Positions 7,308 through 44,848 of a stretch of DNA of 64,000 nucleotides are shown one piece after another (within the stretch, counting starts at the first letter, position 1; each line of letters begins with the position of its first letter). The notes beneath the pieces are model-generated. The model was not told where the DNA came from. It did no database searches and worked only from the letters and a program-made list of their open reading frames with translations. The position numbers and the translations under genes are program-made. This stretch comes from Dehalococcoidia bacterium (GTDB lineage Bacteria; Chloroflexota; Dehalococcoidia; GIF9; AB-539-J10). The stretch covers positions 195,051 through 259,050 of the forward strand of contig DAOUDP010000017.1 in assembly GCA_034431195.1 (NCBI GenBank), written 5' to 3'.

Positions 7308-7332
7308 GTGTCATTGCGAGCGAAGCAATGGC
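7308..7332. repeat. short copy of the GTCATTGCGAGCGAAGCAATG hairpin repeat family
   Basis: gtcattgcgagcgaagcaatggc: 6-bp stem cattgc/gcaatg with a 7-nt loop; same core as the repeats at 14961, 16242, 17895, 25920 and 36291. Confidence 0.6.
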
Positions 7333-8601: not shown

Positions 8602-9219
8602 CTAAACTTGCCGCCTCCTTGATTGGAATGCACCGATGAGTCCACCTCTTATTCTGGGCCCAGTTTTTAGTTCCTCAAACTGTTTTATGCCAAATATGAC
8701 CAGCACGCATAGCATAAACAATGATGCCACCACATATGCCTCGGTGGCTACCAGGTATCCCAGAGAACCCACTGGACCAAGCATCACTGCCCATGAGTTA
8801 CTCCCCAGGATAAGAAAGCCCAAGGTCATAAACACTGCAAATGAGACCAGAATCTCATGCTGGGGTAATGCCAGAAGTACGCCATAGCTAACGGCTATTG
8901 ATTTACCGCCTTTCAAACCCAACACGGGTGAGAAGGCATGCCCCGCTATCGCACTCACTGCCACTGCCATGACTATTATGTCAGGGAGTCCAAGCAACAA
9001 ATATGCCAGGACTACGAAAGGCATACCTTTAGCTACGTCCAGAATCAGGGCGAGGCTCCCCGCTTTACAACCTCCAGCCCGGATAACATTAGCGGCTCCG
9101 GGATTTCCATCCCCATAATTCCTGATGTCTTTACCCAGAAGCCAATGCCCGACCCACAAAGAAAACGGGCAAGCACCCAGCCAGAAAGCGGCTATACTCA
9201 GTAAGGCGGCATAAAACAT
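8602..9219 (-). CDS. plsY: glycerol-3-phosphate acyltransferase PlsY
   Basis: GDGNPGAANV motif and five predicted TM segments; ~200 aa. Confidence 0.87.
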   Translation of the reverse strand: MFYAALLSIAAFWLGACPFSLWVGHWLLGKDIRNYGDGNPGAANVIRAGGCKAGSLALILDVAKGMPFVVLAYLLLGLPDIIVMAVAVSAIAGHAFSPVLGLKGGKSIAVSYGVLLALPQHEILVSFAVFMTLGFLILGSNSWAVMLGPVGSLGYLVATEAYVVASLFMLCVLVIFGIKQFEELKTGPRIRGGLIGAFQSRRRQV

Positions 9220-9409
9220 TTCGACTGCGGCAATTCCACAACTATACAGCTAGATATACTTGGAGCATCCAGATATATTGCATCCTAACCGAGCTTCTTT
9301 GTCAAGTGGATACAACGTTGATTTGGTCTTACGAAATTCATTCTTTGTTCTAACTTCAAGCCTCATTGCACAATATCGCCGGGTAACACTGTTGTATAAT
9401 ATCTGTGAT

Positions 9410-10495
9410 ATGCCTGGCTCAGCGCGAAGGACCGGGATTGCCAATCTACCGCTGCATTATGGCAAGGTGCCTCCGTGGCTGTTTGGACGGATGTCTCAGC
9501 TTGCTCGGGAGATTGCCATTGTCATCGTTGATGAGTTTAGTGTTGAAGAGATGCTTCGCCGCCTTTCCGACCCTTTCTGGTTTCAAGCCTTTGGCTGTGT
9601 TCTAGGCTATGACTGGCATTCCAGCGGTGTTACCACAACCGTCTGCGGTGCCCTGAAAGAAGGGATGAGAGGATTGGAAAAAGAACTCGGCTTGTTCGTT
9701 GCCGGCGGCAAAGGCAGGACTTCTCGAAAGACTCCTGCTGAAATAGAAAACTCTGGGCATCTGCTAAAGGTAAATCCATCACCTCTGGTTTATGCCAGCC
9801 GAATGTCAGCTAAAGTGGATAATTCAGCCCTTCAGGATGGTTATCAGCTCTATCACCACACTTTCTTCTTCACCAAAGGCGGCTCCTGGGCAGTTATTCA
9901 GCAGGGCATGAATGAAATCAACCGCTATGCTCGGCGATACCACTGGCTGGGGGAGAAAGTTACCGATTTTGTTTGCGAGCCTGAGTCTGCTATCTGCTCT
10001 CAGGGTAGAGGTGAGGCGCTGAATCTGGTGGCTTCAGAAAGCACAAAGGCAAGGAATGTCATCGCTCAGGTTGCCACTGAGGAGAAACCAGAAAAAATTG
10101 TGATTCAGTTGAGTAAATTGAAAACGTTAAACCTGCCCCGGCGACCTTACATCACGCTGGAGGACATCCACCCTGACAGACTGAGCAAGATTTTCACCAT
10201 TGCCTACGAGCATCAGCCGCAAGATTTCGAATCACTGCTCGGGCTTGAAGGTGTAGGACCAAAGACGCTTCGCGCCCTCAGCCTTATCTCGGAGCTGGTG
10301 TACAATACACCAGTCAGTCTGCGTGACCCGGCAAGTTATAGCTTTGCCCACGGCGGTAAGGATGGTCATCCCTATCCTGTGGATAGAAAAACTTACGATA
10401 GCAGCATCCAGTTTCTGGCTCGAGCTCTGGACAAAGCCAGAATCGGGGACAAAGAGAAGCTTGAAGCCTTGCGTCGTCTGAAGGCATGGCAGTGA
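9410..10495 (+). CDS. DUF763-like protein with C-terminal helix-hairpin-helix motif; probable start at ATG 9410 rather than listed 9260
   Basis: RTGIANLPLHYGKVPPWLF N-terminus resembles archaeal/bacterial DUF763 proteins; LEGVGPKTLRALSL HhH motif; TATAAT at 9395-9400 lies 9 nt upstream of ATG 9410. Confidence 0.55.
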   Translation: MPGSARRTGIANLPLHYGKVPPWLFGRMSQLAREIAIVIVDEFSVEEMLRRLSDPFWFQAFGCVLGYDWHSSGVTTTVCGALKEGMRGLEKELGLFVAGGKGRTSRKTPAEIENSGHLLKVNPSPLVYASRMSAKVDNSALQDGYQLYHHTFFFTKGGSWAVIQQGMNEINRYARRYHWLGEKVTDFVCEPESAICSQGRGEALNLVASESTKARNVIAQVATEEKPEKIVIQLSKLKTLNLPRRPYITLEDIHPDRLSKIFTIAYEHQPQDFESLLGLEGVGPKTLRALSLISELVYNTPVSLRDPASYSFAHGGKDGHPYPVDRKTYDSSIQFLARALDKARIGDKEKLEALRRLKAWQ

Positions 10496-10537
10496 GAATT
10501 GACCCAACTATGCACCTGATTTAACATAAGCAGCAAA

Positions 10538-11878
10538 ATGACCGATTTCAATATTGCACCTTATGTGTCCCACATCGAGGCTAACCGTTCGGTTAAGGAC
10601 GCCGTGATGGAGAAGCTACAGGAGCGTCGCCCTCCCTATCGCGTCTCGGTAACTGACTTAACCAATTTGAAGCAAGCTTATTTCCGCAGAAAGCATCCCG
10701 AGATAGTCCCCCCTCTGGAGAAACAGCAGCTCATGTGGAAGGGGACCGGGTTTCACAAGCTTTTTGGCTTCGCTGTATCCAGCGAGGAATATCTGGAGCA
10801 ATTTGTGGAGACTGAAGGTGTGGTGGGTAAAATTGACATCTACGAAAATGTTCCCGTGGAGGTTAAAACGACTTCAGCATTGGCGAAGGGAAAAAGCTTA
10901 CTCCAGCAAAGACCGACTTACATTGAGCAAGTAGGCATGTATTGTGCTATGGTCAATGTTGGGGATGGAAAGATTGTCATTTACGAACGGCAGGGTGCAG
11001 AGGAATCGGGTGTGGTTCCTCTTACCGCCTATCATGTCACCTTTCCCAGCTTGGAAGCAGTTCGGGAAGAGATGCGTCGCAGGCGAGACTTATTGATTCA
11101 GGCGCTCATCTCCAACGACCCCAGCAACTTGCCTGTATGTGACTGGTTTGGCAGAGGATGCGACTATTCTGCAGTGTGCGACTGCGGCACCAGCTCGGTG
11201 CCCCCATCACACAAAATCGCTGAGTTAGCGGAGCAGGTTCAAATTGATGTGGCTACCCGCCAGCAACTGCTGGATAAACTTGGCAAGCCAAAGCCATCGC
11301 AGCTATTTCGCACTACCGACCTCGTCTTTCCCCGCAAGGCATATTTCGAGCGTCGCAAATCCTTGGAGACCATTTCAGAGGAGGAGGCAGCTGAGGAAAA
11401 AGGAGAATCCCTCCGCTCTATGGAGGAGGCGGGCTTTGTGGGCGCCCTCAAAGGGCTCATCCAGTTTGGTTCTCCCGGGGAAGTGGAAAATATTCCGATT
11501 CAGCATGCTTCGCTCAGCGACCTGGTTCGGCTCCGCCAGGGTTTGCCCACTATGGTGCGCATCCCTAAGTTCCAGTCACTTGTGGAACGGGGGCGGCTGC
11601 CTTCAGCATTTCCACACTATTTTTATCGCCTGGGCTTTGATTGTGCGTTAATAGACCATCCTAAAGGCAGACTATTTCTTTACTATGCTAATATCAGGGA
11701 TGAGAATGCCAAGATGATGGTCTATGATGTTTCCTTCAGAAACCTGGGTGCTATAAAGGCTGAGGCGATACGCCGCATAGAGCTTCTGGAAAAGGCGACT
11801 TCAGTAGCCCAGCTTCCGAGATGTCCTTCGTGGATGTGCCGCTATTGTTCCTACAGAGACGAATGCGGCGAGATTTAG
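10538..11878 (+). CDS. RecB/Cas4-like PD-(D/E)XK nuclease with two homologous domains, each ending in a 4-Cys cluster
   Basis: Domain 1 has GKIDIY (D), EVK (ExK), QVGMY (QxxxY) and C-x5-C-x5-C-x-C; domain 2 aligns with domain 1 but lacks D/ExK and ends C-x4-C-x2-C-x5-C. Confidence 0.6.
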   Translation: MTDFNIAPYVSHIEANRSVKDAVMEKLQERRPPYRVSVTDLTNLKQAYFRRKHPEIVPPLEKQQLMWKGTGFHKLFGFAVSSEEYLEQFVETEGVVGKIDIYENVPVEVKTTSALAKGKSLLQQRPTYIEQVGMYCAMVNVGDGKIVIYERQGAEESGVVPLTAYHVTFPSLEAVREEMRRRRDLLIQALISNDPSNLPVCDWFGRGCDYSAVCDCGTSSVPPSHKIAELAEQVQIDVATRQQLLDKLGKPKPSQLFRTTDLVFPRKAYFERRKSLETISEEEAAEEKGESLRSMEEAGFVGALKGLIQFGSPGEVENIPIQHASLSDLVRLRQGLPTMVRIPKFQSLVERGRLPSAFPHYFYRLGFDCALIDHPKGRLFLYYANIRDENAKMMVYDVSFRNLGAIKAEAIRRIELLEKATSVAQLPRCPSWMCRYCSYRDECGEI

Positions 11879-11988: not shown

Positions 11989-12825
11989 GTGAGACTAAAA
12001 GTTGGGGTGAGAAGTAATATGATCGAGGTCAACCAGTTTGAGGAAGTTGTTCAAATCAAGATGAGCCGTGAGTTTGAAGGGCAACCGCTTTACTGGGTTG
12101 CGGCGTACCTTGTTGACGGGCTCCTTATTGATACCGGCTGTAAGCATACGGATGAGGAGTTGGTCGAATTTCTGGATGGGCAGAATCTCAAATTCGCCGT
12201 AAACACGCATTATCACGAAGACCATATCGGTGCCAATCATCTTTTGAAGCAGAAATTTGGCATCGAGATATTTGCACCTCGTGAATCAGTTCCTCTCATC
12301 AACCAGGTTCCCAAGTTGTATCCATATCAGGAGATGGTTTGGGGTTATCCGGAGCCCACTGAAGTGGATTGTTTGACTGAGAGAGTAGAAACTGGTCATT
12401 TTCACTTTGATGTGGTAGAGACTCCCGGGCATTGTAACGGACACGTGGCATTAATAGAGCCTGAAAAAGGGTGGTGCTTTTCGGCGGACCTTTTTATTTC
12501 GGAAAAGCCAAGGGTTATCCGCCCAGAGGAGGATATCACGGGCATTACAAGGTCAATGAAAAAGCTCGTTGCTCTCGAGACCGACAGACTTATTCTATTT
12601 ACCTCCATGGGCAATGTGGTACAGGATGGCCGCAATGCCCTTCAAACATGTATAGAATACTTCCAGGACTTGTCTCGAAGAGCAAAGCAGCTTGAAAAAA
12701 AGGGTCTCTCGGTTGTTGCTATTCGGGATGAAGTTTTCGGGAGAGAAAGTTCCCTTGCTGGTCTTACAGATGGACAGTTCTCGTCTGAAAACCTGGTCCG
12801 AGCTGCTCTTCGTGCACAGATATGA
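11989..12825 (+). CDS. MBL-fold metallo-hydrolase
   Basis: HYHEDHIGANH zinc-binding motif, downstream H and D ligands (TPGHCNGH, FSADLF); alternative start at ATG 12019. Confidence 0.8.
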   Translation: MRLKVGVRSNMIEVNQFEEVVQIKMSREFEGQPLYWVAAYLVDGLLIDTGCKHTDEELVEFLDGQNLKFAVNTHYHEDHIGANHLLKQKFGIEIFAPRESVPLINQVPKLYPYQEMVWGYPEPTEVDCLTERVETGHFHFDVVETPGHCNGHVALIEPEKGWCFSADLFISEKPRVIRPEEDITGITRSMKKLVALETDRLILFTSMGNVVQDGRNALQTCIEYFQDLSRRAKQLEKKGLSVVAIRDEVFGRESSLAGLTDGQFSSENLVRAALRAQI

Positions 12826-12942
12826 TTTACCATGAGCGGCACACGCAGATAACAACCTGTTTGCAGAAAAGGCAACGAAACACGATTCCATGAATGAGGA
12901 ATCAAGACGCTGGAGAATTATAGATGTATCTGGGGGTAATTT

Positions 12943-14037
12943 GTGAAACTTAAAAAGGTTGCCAAATGGACTTTGCTAAGTCTAGTAATTATCCTTGTAT
13001 CCCTTTCAGCCTGGGGATGGCTGGTCACCTATCATCCCGCTGAGGTGCAATCAGAGCCGATAATTTGCTCTGACCAGACACCTATTTTGAGTCCAGGGCA
13101 GAAACTGAAGGTGTTAAATTGGAATGTGCAGTTTATGGCAGGCAAGAATTATGTCTTTTTCTATGATTTACCAGATGGTTCTGGGCCTGATGAAAGACCC
13201 TCACCAGAAGATATTACTAAGACCTTCAGTGAAGTCTCCCGCATTATCCAGGATGAAAAGCCCGACATTATTTTGTTGCAAGAGGTTGATGCTGGAGCGA
13301 AACGCACAGATTATGAAGACCAACTGGCTCGCCTATTATCGTTACTACCTGAGGAATATAGCTGCTATACTTCTGCATTCGAGTGGAAAGCCTCTTTTGT
13401 TCCTCACCCACGGATTATGGGAGCTGTGGGGCTGAAAATAGCTATTATATCTAAATATAGGATAACACAGGCTACTCGCTATCAATTGCCTTTAATGCCC
13501 CAACCAGTAACTCGCGAATTTAACTTAAAGCGGGCTGTTTTAGAAGTCCATATGCCTGTAGAAAATGCTACAAATTTCGTAGTGTTAAACACGCATTTGG
13601 AAGCTTTTGCGCAGGGTACCGACACCCTGGAAAAACAAGTTAATCAAGTAGAATCTATTTTAGAAAACCTGACCCAAGAGGGCTATCCCTGGATTATAGG
13701 AGGCGATTTCAATTCGCTACCTCCTGGCAAAGCCTATGGTCTATTACAGGAAGAACAAAAGAAATATTATAGCCAGAAAACGGAAATAGAGTCCTTATTT
13801 GAAAAATACCAGGCTGTGCCCAGCTTGCCAGAAGTTAATAGTCCCGACTGTGAACAATGGTTCACGCACTTTCCCAACGACCCTGGCGTAGGAAAGCCCG
13901 ATAGGACTATTGATTATATCTTCCTAGCGAATAACGTTACCTTAGAAAAGCATTGTGTAAGGCAGTATGATACCCTGACAATATCAGACCATCTGCCTGT
14001 GCTGGCTGAGTTTGAACTACCTTCTTCCCCTGAATAA
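12943..14037 (+). CDS. endonuclease/exonuclease/phosphatase (EEP) family protein with N-terminal membrane anchor or signal
   Basis: Hydrophobic N-terminus (WTLLSLVIILVSLSAWGWLV), LNWNVQF, ILLQEVD, GGDFN, SDHLPV motifs of the DNase I-like EEP fold. Confidence 0.8.
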   Translation: MKLKKVAKWTLLSLVIILVSLSAWGWLVTYHPAEVQSEPIICSDQTPILSPGQKLKVLNWNVQFMAGKNYVFFYDLPDGSGPDERPSPEDITKTFSEVSRIIQDEKPDIILLQEVDAGAKRTDYEDQLARLLSLLPEEYSCYTSAFEWKASFVPHPRIMGAVGLKIAIISKYRITQATRYQLPLMPQPVTREFNLKRAVLEVHMPVENATNFVVLNTHLEAFAQGTDTLEKQVNQVESILENLTQEGYPWIIGGDFNSLPPGKAYGLLQEEQKKYYSQKTEIESLFEKYQAVPSLPEVNSPDCEQWFTHFPNDPGVGKPDRTIDYIFLANNVTLEKHCVRQYDTLTISDHLPVLAEFELPSSPE

Positions 14038-40782: not shown

Positions 40783-42129
40783 GTGGCTACCGGTGATTCT
40801 ATTTCTATGAGTGAACCATTTTCGGCAAAAGAGGCTTGGGCAAGAGCTTTAGGACAGCTTCAACTCCAAGTCAACAGGATAAACTATGATACCTGGCTTA
40901 GGGATAGTCAAGGTATCAATTGCGAAAACGACGTCTTCGTAGTTAGCGTTCCCAATACTTTCATCGCTGAGTATCTTACAAAACGCTTTCACTCATTGAT
41001 AAAGAAGACCATTGCCATTATCTTAGGAAAAGACTTGGAGGTCCAATTCGTGGTACAGCAGCCAACACTGGCCAGGGAGAAGTCATTGCAGCGCGACGGT
41101 GGAGTAAGCACCAAGATGAAAACCTACCGATTTAACCCCAAATACACTTTCGCCAGATTTGTGGTGGGTGATTGTAATCGCCTTGCCTATGCTGCAGCCA
41201 CAGAGGTAAGCCAGAAACCATCACTGGTCTACAATCCACTCATCATTCACGGAGATACTGGTCGCGGCAAGACTCACTTGTTACATGCTATCGGGCACAT
41301 GGCGATAGGAAGTGGACTGAACGTGGTTTACTCCTCCGCTGACCAATTCATCACTGAATTTGTGCTCGCAGTCAAGCAGAACGATGTAGACCATTTCCGA
41401 AGTAAATTCGCCCCGGTAAATGTGTTCCTTTTCGATGATTTCCAACTGCTAGATAATAAAAAGCAGACTCAACAGTTTTTCTTTCACACTTTCAACGAGC
41501 TTTATCATAATAACTGTCAAATCGTGATCGCTGCTGACTGCGCCCCCAAAGAGATGTCTTTAGTCGGCAACAGGCTAAGGTCACGCCTGCAATGTGGTCT
41601 TGTTACTCAAATTCAACCACTCGATTTTGGGACACGGTTAGCTATACTTCAAGCCAAGTCAACGGAGAAGAGACTCCCTATCATCGAAGAGACGCTGCAA
41701 TTTATCGCACAGAAGATACAGGATAACGTCTACCAGCTTGAAGGTGCCCTCACATACCTCGATGCCTATACCAAGTTAACCGGGCTTAGCTTAACTCCAC
41801 AAATAGTCACCAAATTATTAACAACTAATAAAAACAACGATGACTGTAAATTAATAGTCCAAACGGTAGCTGAATATTTTGACTGTTCCCTAGAGCAATT
41901 GCTAGGCAGAAAGAGGGATAGGGAGACTTCCCTAGCACGCCAAATCGCAGCGTATCTCCTGCGAGAGAAAGGAAATTACTCTTTCACCGAGATCAGCAAT
42001 ATATTGGGTAATAGGAATCATGCCACAATACTCCATGGATATAAGAAAATAGCTAACGATTTAGGGGTTAATTCCAAGCTGAAAAGGCAAATCAGTCAAA
42101 TTAAACGACAAATTGACAATTCGTATTAA
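40783..42129 (+). CDS. dnaA: chromosomal replication initiator DnaA
   Basis: Walker A GDTGRGKTHLLHAIG, Walker B LFDDFQ, sensor motifs, C-terminal DNA-binding domain (LARQIAAYLLRE...HATILHGYKKI); start possibly at ATG 40807. Confidence 0.92.
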   Translation: MATGDSISMSEPFSAKEAWARALGQLQLQVNRINYDTWLRDSQGINCENDVFVVSVPNTFIAEYLTKRFHSLIKKTIAIILGKDLEVQFVVQQPTLAREKSLQRDGGVSTKMKTYRFNPKYTFARFVVGDCNRLAYAAATEVSQKPSLVYNPLIIHGDTGRGKTHLLHAIGHMAIGSGLNVVYSSADQFITEFVLAVKQNDVDHFRSKFAPVNVFLFDDFQLLDNKKQTQQFFFHTFNELYHNNCQIVIAADCAPKEMSLVGNRLRSRLQCGLVTQIQPLDFGTRLAILQAKSTEKRLPIIEETLQFIAQKIQDNVYQLEGALTYLDAYTKLTGLSLTPQIVTKLLTTNKNNDDCKLIVQTVAEYFDCSLEQLLGRKRDRETSLARQIAAYLLREKGNYSFTEISNILGNRNHATILHGYKKIANDLGVNSKLKRQISQIKRQIDNSY

Positions 42130-42171
42130 TATACTGTGAATAAAATGTTACAAGCTTAAGAAGCATTTATC

Positions 42172-42190
42172 CCTTGCTCAAAGGTTTTTT
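42172..42190 (+). terminator. weak candidate intrinsic terminator after dnaA
   Basis: ccttgctcaaagg (4-bp stem, 5-nt loop) followed by tttttt. Confidence 0.2.
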
Positions 42191-42287
42191 CTAATCCCCA
42201 TATACATTCTTATTAGTGTTATTATTATTCAAATACTATAGGTAAATATATAATTATCATAATCAGGGATAACCGGACAGTGAAGTT

Positions 42288-42890
42288 ATGAAAGTAGGGG
42301 TCTTGGGAGGCACCTTTGACCCTGTTCATATAGGGCATCTCATTATTGCTGAAGCAGTCCAAGTCCAGTTACGGTTGGAAAAAGTTCTTTTTGTACCTGC
42401 GGGTCAGCCGTGGCTTAAACTGCAGCATCCGATTACCCCAGCAGGTTATCGTGTGGAGATGCTGCGTCTGGCTATTCTCCCTAATCTTCACTTTGAACTA
42501 AGCGATGTGGAGGTGGAGCGCTCTGGCCCCTCGTATACTATAGATACTATGGTTGAGCTCAGGAATCGGTTAGGTGCTCAGGCGGATTTGTTTTTTATCC
42601 TGGGATGTGATGCTCTAGCTCAGTTTGCTGAGTGGAAGGAGCCGAGCAAGCTAATCCAACTATGCAAGTTAGCCGTTGTGCCCAGAGCAAATTTAGCCTT
42701 ACCAGCTTTGGAAGGTTTAGAGCGTCGTATTCCGGGGATAACTGATAGAGTTAGCTATGTCGCTACCCCGATAATTGATATTAGTTCTTCACAGATTCGG
42801 GAGCGTGTGGCTCGAGGATTATCAATCCGGTATCTTGTGCCGGACAAAGTAGAGGAATATATAGCACAGCGTCGGTTATATCGCAGCTAG
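42288..42890 (+). CDS. nadD: nicotinate-nucleotide adenylyltransferase
   Basis: GGTFDPVHIGH motif; ~200 aa. Confidence 0.88.
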   Translation: MKVGVLGGTFDPVHIGHLIIAEAVQVQLRLEKVLFVPAGQPWLKLQHPITPAGYRVEMLRLAILPNLHFELSDVEVERSGPSYTIDTMVELRNRLGAQADLFFILGCDALAQFAEWKEPSKLIQLCKLAVVPRANLALPALEGLERRIPGITDRVSYVATPIIDISSSQIRERVARGLSIRYLVPDKVEEYIAQRRLYRS

Positions 42891-42901
42891 CAAGGATTTG
42901 T

Positions 42902-44848
<1,947 letters not shown>

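Follow-up and report, generated by a model that had tools for sequence, protein, structure and literature searches.

The 64,000-nucleotide stretch of a Dehalococcoidia bacterium chromosome analysed here (contig DAOUDP010000017.1; hereafter the window) contains, between plsY and a gene for a metallo-beta-lactamase-fold (MBL) protein, two genes encoding a DUF763 protein (gene 1) and a Cas4-like nuclease (gene 2). A previous sequence-only reading had taken them for a two-gene module of DNA-end processing, repair or defence. It described two co-directional genes 42 bp apart with these flanks, and the coordinates and strands agree with that description. The layout of the locus is as follows:

8602..9219, minus strand: plsY, flanking gene
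9410..10495, plus strand: gene 1, DUF763 protein, 361 amino acids (open frame from TTG 9260)
10496..10537, plus strand: 42-bp intergenic spacer between gene 1 and gene 2
10538..11878, plus strand: gene 2, tandem Cas4-like nuclease, 446 amino acids
11989..12825, plus strand: MBL gene, flanking gene

The window belongs to a metagenome-assembled genome, and the region of the pair is identical to ENA ERZ23499022 scaffold_8. Judged by their conservation, both are real genes and not chance open reading frames (ORFs), because each has hundreds to thousands of conserved homologues. The ORF of gene 1 (9260..10495) lies on the same strand as that of gene 2 (10538..11878). The frame is indeed open from position 9260, where the sequence-only reading had started gene 1, but the ATG at 9410 is the probable start, giving 361 amino acids, since most homologues have this length and residue 59 of the 411-residue frame is the first in the Pfam match; the first 50 codons are outside that match. 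A TATAAT at 9395-9400, 9 nt before the probable ATG, could be a promoter, and from its position the DUF763 transcript may have little or no leader. In consensus scans, the spacer showed promoter-like hexamers (TTGACC-17-TAACAT, 10499-10527), and no terminator-like sites were found on the plus strand between 9000 and 12200, hence none between the two genes.

Tandem Cas4-like architecture of gene 2

Gene 2 consists of two Cas4-like PD-(D/E)XK domains in tandem, the product of an internal duplication, as the homology between its N- and C-terminal halves shows (BLASTP E 2e-13, 27% identity; hhalign probability 98.5%, E 1.5e-15). The N-terminal half matched Pfam PDDEXK_1 (PF12705) over residues 90-215 with 28.1 bits (cutoff 22) and the phage Cas4-like family PHROG 1706 with E 1.4e-9, while residues 265-443 matched TIGR00372 (cas4) weakly, with 19.1 bits, far under the cutoff of 65. 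The description of gene 2 as a PD-(D/E)XK nuclease followed by cysteines holds for the N domain, but a second Cas4-like domain had been overlooked. Residue conservation was scored over 61 homologues with 67-95% identity, and the features of the protein, all on the plus strand, are:

10625..11203, plus strand: N-terminal Cas4-like domain, residues ~30-222, with H73, D100, E108, K110, Q131 and Y135 invariant
11138..11185, plus strand: cysteine cluster 1, C201-x6-C208-x5-C214-x-C216, four cysteines invariant in the 61 homologues
11300..11875, plus strand: C-terminal Cas4-like domain, residues ~255-446, aligned to the N domain by hhalign
11822..11866, plus strand: cysteine cluster 2, C429-x4-C434-x2-C437-x5-C443, invariant, the last three forming the canonical Cas4 C-x2-C-x5-C

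The PD-(D/E)XK core that had been noticed in the protein (D, ExK, QxxxY) corresponds to D100, E108-x-K110 and Q131-xxx-Y135, and the N domain is predicted to be catalytically active. The cysteine spacing had been given as C-x5-C-x5-C-x-C and was off by one, the actual pattern being C-x6-C-x5-C-x-C. The motifs of the superfamily are confined to the N domain and missing from the C domain: in the hhalign alignment E108 is paired with M, K110 with R341, Q131 with R364 and Y135 with D368. With these residues at the aligned positions, the C domain has lost what is needed for metal binding and catalysis and is, by this alignment, catalytically degenerate. The C domain has invariant residues of its own (D328, R341, K344, H360 and R364), and it is basic (isoelectric point, pI, 8.8), in contrast to the acidic N domain (pI 5.8).

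No conserved N-terminal ("staple") cysteine was found in either domain among the 61 homologues. A fifth invariant cysteine directly follows the QxxxY position in both domains (C136, 10943-10945, and C369, 11642-11644, equivalent in hhalign), and could be an alternative iron-sulfur (Fe-S) ligand in place of the absent staple cysteine.

A Foldseek search of the PDB with the AlphaFold2 (AF2) model of gene 2 gave Cas4 SSO0001 (4ic1) as the best match (E 2e-6), followed by MGME1, lambda exonuclease and RecE (E 4e-3 to 0.1). This supports a PD-(D/E)XK fold, the absence of which had been named beforehand as evidence against the sequence-only reading. Searches of the PDB sequences with the sequences and profiles of both genes, and with the N domain alone, returned nothing meaningful.

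The closest known relatives are Cas4 (SSO0001, Pcal_0546) and the solo-Cas4 proteins, with which the N domain shares RecB motifs II and III and QxxxY. Each domain of gene 2 has four conserved cysteines, as these proteins do, and the C domain keeps C-x2-C-x5-C. Canonical Cas4 has one N-terminal cysteine plus a C-terminal C-x2-C-x5-C (PMC8610317), whereas the gene 2 domains have a fourth C-terminal cysteine instead of the N-terminal staple cysteine, and the pattern of the N domain does not match that of Cas4. Moreover, Cas4 is a single domain, while gene 2 consists of two fused domains, the second without catalytic residues. The solo-Cas4 proteins are monophyletic in many Chloroflexi (PMC5704561) and, like gene 2, are encoded apart from cas genes. 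Gene 2 is not a Cas4 sensu stricto: its TIGR00372 score is under the cutoff, its cysteine pattern differs, and it is outside a cas1/cas2-CRISPR context.

The "iron-staple" domains of AddB and Dna2 also combine a RecB-type nuclease with a four-cysteine site and belong to the same Pfam family, PDDEXK_1, and AddAB likewise pairs an active with an inactive module. However, gene 2 is much smaller, and its cysteines do not tie the two ends of a domain together. No helicase domain was found in gene 2 by Pfam and no helicase among the flanking genes; gene 2 is not of the AddAB/RecBCD type. MGME1, lambda exonuclease and RecE have the PD-(D/E)XK exonuclease fold in common with gene 2 according to Foldseek, but no detectable sequence similarity to it. 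They are 5' DNA exonucleases without an Fe-S site; by analogy, it is plausible that gene 2 processes 5' ends or flaps. Lambda exonuclease is a toroidal homo-oligomer (PDB title, 1avq), whereas gene 2 is a tandem repeat. What is new at this locus is the tandem, cysteine-rearranged Cas4-like architecture, DUF763 being an already catalogued family.

Gene 2 is probably a lineage-specific derivative of the Chloroflexi solo-Cas4, produced by an internal duplication. Its acidic N domain would act on DNA ends, single-stranded DNA or 5' flaps by cutting or resection, as do Cas4, MGME1 and the nuclease domain of AddB. The basic, inactive C domain would serve as a built-in DNA-binding partner in place of a second subunit, so that one chain makes up a pseudo-dimer, and each domain probably carries an Fe-S cluster of its own with C-terminal cysteines as the only ligands. 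With a putatively active and an inactive Cas4-family domain joined in one chain and all the putative Fe-S ligands C-terminal, the protein offers a natural experiment on the purpose of the "iron staple".

The DUF763 protein

The resemblance of gene 1 to DUF763 noticed in the sequence-only reading was borne out by a full-length Pfam match (PF05559, E 1e-134, 449 bits, cutoff 35.5, profile positions 1-319 of 319), making it an unambiguous member without differences from the family. The family is widespread, from DPANN archaea to rhizobia, with 3048 clusters at 50% identity (E up to 1e-3) and more than 8000 at 90% identity, compared with 592 for gene 2. Its conservation is very high, bacterial and archaeal members being 35-45% identical. 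The gene 1 protein is basic (pI 9.1). Two of its features, both on the plus strand, stand out:

10244..10279, plus strand: putative helix-hairpin-helix (HhH) LEGVGPKTLRAL, from conservation and AF2 helices
10325..10381, plus strand: DPxxYSFAHGGKDGxPYPV, the most conserved DUF763 motif, with D306, P307, G315, G316, K317, D318, G319 and P321 invariant or nearly so

An alignment of 63 diverse members showed near-invariant polar blocks (LPLHxG, DWHSSGxTT, GGKG, AKVD...QDGYxLYHH, QQGMN, ARRYHW, the HhH G-x-G-P..R and DPxxYSFAHGGKDGxPYPV), a pattern that looks enzyme-like. By itself, the last of these motifs retrieved ~600 genomic homologues; it may be a loop of the active site or one that binds phosphate, and residues 311-321 have a low predicted local distance difference test score (pLDDT) in the AF2 model. 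For the HhH, G281, G283, R288 and L290 are near-invariant in the same members, and the hairpin is flanked by helices 273-277 and 284-298 in the model; its match to Pfam HHH (PF00633; E 0.006, 16.8 bits) is below the 24-bit cutoff. The motif had been placed at the end of the protein; its sequence is present, but ~70 residues still follow it.

The AF2 model of the DUF763 protein is confident (pLDDT 85, predicted template modelling score 0.85), and no relative of its fold was found in the PDB. There was no match in NCBIfam, PADLOC or PHROGs, no domain fusion among the longer DUF763 homologues, and in the literature searched the family was found only as a listed domain in a 2005 census (archaea, rhizobia, Xanthomonas). 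The protein is probably a stand-alone enzyme acting on nucleic acid, with a fold unseen in solved structures. In a set of related loci (L086-L165) DUF763 has 84-95% identity to the protein of the window, whereas gene 2 falls to 67-71% in the same genomes, indicating that DUF763 is under much stronger constraint.

In Candidatus Mancarchaeum acidiphilum (L166, 6001-7089), DUF763 is located between an unannotated gene of 353 amino acids and that of cysteinyl-tRNA synthetase (CysRS). Its retention in this DPANN genome of ~0.95 Mb hints at a core function and makes DUF763 a good target for functional discovery, as a conserved, basic, HhH-containing protein with a confident orphan fold and a scant literature. 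The window itself gives no decisive hint of what the protein does.

Genomic neighbourhoods and interpretation of the pair

The surroundings of DUF763 were searched over ~6 kb in 80 loci of GTDB species representatives from many phyla. A hidden Markov model (HMM) of gene 2 detected a neighbouring nuclease in only three of the 80 (L006-L008), all from Dehalococcoidia and with DUF763 proteins 78-87% identical to that of the window. Separate HMMs for the N and C domains, used unfiltered down to E 10, revealed no further nuclease, leaving 77 of the 80 loci without one. When all the flanking ORFs were clustered, no neighbour recurred apart from spurious overlapping frames, and 48 co-directional neighbours mapped to 99 Pfam families, of which the commonest, PCMT, appeared four times.

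In other Dehalococcoidia and Chloroflexota, DUF763 is found beside genes for a methyltransferase, a hexapeptide transferase, isocitrate/isopropylmalate dehydrogenase (IDH) or RsmD. Two of these loci (L009, 5174-7077; L014, 5189-7086) have a class I S-adenosylmethionine-dependent methyltransferase gene that overlaps the DUF763 start by 4 nt, suggestive of translational coupling, and the hexapeptide transferase gene after DUF763. They had been considered as cases of DUF763 followed by CvpA without the nuclease, which was ruled out when Pfam identified the hexapeptide transferase. Archaeal neighbours include CysRS, a ribosomal-protein/Spt4 block, the thermosome and one Lhr helicase, and the rhizobial and haloarchaeal megaplasmids that carry DUF763 have uninformative neighbours; a nuclease of the gene 2 type was absent from all the archaeal and rhizobial loci examined. 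The Lhr-type helicase (at least 1714 amino acids) is encoded co-directionally 120 bp downstream of DUF763 in a Thermoplasmatota-like archaeon (L174, 5001-11113). The synteny of this locus is as in L167, yet L167 has another gene downstream of DUF763.

The neighbourhood was also examined from gene 2, in a metagenome scan of 80 loci with 67-95% identity, of which the 64 that extend 1.5 kb or more upstream were scored. DUF763 was upstream of the nuclease in 56 of the 64: within 300 bp in 48 loci and farther away, at 308-2168 bp, in the other eight. Four of these eight (L094, L131, L144 and L156) have opposite-strand genes between DUF763 and the nuclease. The remaining eight of the 64 loci lacked DUF763 in at least 3 kb of upstream sequence, and in these, as well as in L004 and L005, the nuclease retains every key residue. 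Overall, tight adjacency was broken by insertion or loss in 16 of the 64 loci, and the spacer varied from 13 to 336 bp among the relatives counted as adjacent. The downstream neighbours (CvpA, or MBL in close relatives) were retained in 59 of 62 loci. These two have no obvious link to a nuclease, and since unrelated downstream genes are as syntenic as DUF763 (59/62 versus 56/64), the adjacency of DUF763 and gene 2 can be regarded as only background synteny.

In the region 11989-14037 the MBL gene is present between gene 2 and CvpA only where the gene 2 of the relative is at least ~84% identical, and an endonuclease/exonuclease/phosphatase gene was detected only in a subset of the MBL-bearing relatives. 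In more distant relatives CvpA comes directly after gene 2. The MBL region looks like a recent insertion into a syntenic block.

Taken together, the module proposed in the sequence-only reading did not hold beyond one narrow Dehalococcoidia lineage, within which the two genes are often adjacent, though no more so than background synteny would give. A DUF763 that never occurs elsewhere beside this nuclease family had been named as the observation that would speak against a module, and this is nearly what was seen: outside the lineage no nuclease of this family was within ~6 kb. Adjacency across distant lineages and above background synteny, the mark of a conserved module, was not observed. The reading that we favour, with a little more confidence than doubt, is that these are two independent housekeeping genes in lineage-specific synteny, gene 2 being a solo-Cas4-type DNA-end nuclease; DUF763 would work separately from it, on a nucleic acid. 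If the two genes are independent, as seems likely, the module as proposed matters little.

Several observations weigh against this reading. The AF2 model of gene 2 is only moderate (pLDDT 64; 75-95 in the core of the N domain and lower in the C domain), and DNA binding is plausible for both proteins. In 48 of the 64 loci, down to 68% gene 2 identity, the two genes are neighbours on one strand, and in 20 of these the spacer measures 13-47 bp. The window shows no terminator-like site between them, so that co-transcription, and with it a functional link specific to the lineage, may exist. The same arrangement would fit a lineage-specific operon for DNA-end processing or repair, in which DUF763 binds through its HhH or modifies an end or lesion and passes the substrate to the nuclease. 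The basic charge and conserved HhH of DUF763 agree with such a role, as do the archaeal DUF763 gene followed by the Lhr helicase and another located 1.5 kb from an HhH-GPD glycosylase. We nevertheless consider the operon unlikely: the nuclease is absent near DUF763 in 77 of the 80 species and in all the archaeal and rhizobial loci examined; adjacency is no better kept than for the unrelated CvpA, Trx and TatD genes; the nuclease is fully intact despite opposite-strand insertions and in the eight loci without DUF763; and the spacer is very variable, with a promoter-like site upstream of gene 2. That the two proteins associate physically in this lineage to process DNA ends or lesions seems even harder to credit; if true, it would provide the first functional handle on DUF763 and a new asymmetric Cas4 dimer design in one polypeptide.

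Independence of the two genes is also compatible with a role of DUF763 in RNA metabolism, namely in the processing or modification of tRNA or rRNA, unconnected with the nuclease. Its position beside CysRS in the 0.95-Mb Mancarchaeum genome and next to the S24e/S27ae/Spt4/Rpo7 block in Thermoplasmatota, its overlap or contact with methyltransferase genes (including RsmD) in some bacteria, its divergent orientation to RtcA in several Dehalococcoidia and the conservation between bacteria and archaea all point in this direction. However, none of these neighbours recurs between lineages, an HhH more typically binds DNA, and DUF763 has no sequence or fold similarity to known RNA enzymes. We consider an RNA role a reasonable though unlikely alternative.

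A function in defence against phages or plasmids, for instance by combining a sensor with an effector of the Cas4 family, comparable to the Argonaute-associated Cas4 nucleases, is highly improbable. Cas4-family nucleases of cyanobacteria are reported to cooperate with defence proteins (PMC12094033), and gene 2 matched the Cas4 and DruK profiles of PADLOC; these matches are weak (E 2e-4 or weaker), and DUF763 had none. No relatives of either gene were found in viral contigs, and gene 2 was not found in plasmids. The pair belongs to a vertically inherited housekeeping block of the core chromosome, ~30 kb from dnaA and in a window that also carries purine, NAD and lipid genes. Its synteny is stable and not island-like, and the 85-94% identity of DUF763 in the lineage is unlike that of fast-evolving defence genes. 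The defence role that had been suggested for the pair is therefore unsupported.

Within the 64 kb window, dnaA (plus strand) and gyrB (minus strand) occupy 40783-44827, at the minimum of the cumulative GC skew (~40-43 kb), and the window therefore probably spans the replication origin. Genes for DinB, LexA, uracil-DNA glycosylase (UDG) and RNase J map at about 46-63 kb. No cas genes or CRISPR-like repeats were found in the window, in accordance with the earlier remark that cas genes and a helicase partner are missing nearby (the helicase from the adjacent genes). Scans of the window for tRNAs and Rfam families gave no matches, and a tandem-repeat scan gave nothing related to the pair.

An intergenic 13-mer, GCTCGCAATGACA, is present in the window in 12 copies with at most one mismatch, compared with 0.09 expected (positions 7309, 14981, 16244, 16422, 16444, 16567, 17894, 17994, 25922, 26109, 36308 and 36329). 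Several of them are arranged as inverted pairs with 100-190 bp between the copies, or as short tandem arrays with a period of 19-22, and the sequence looks like a repetitive extragenic palindromic (REP) element or a miniature inverted-repeat transposable element (MITE).

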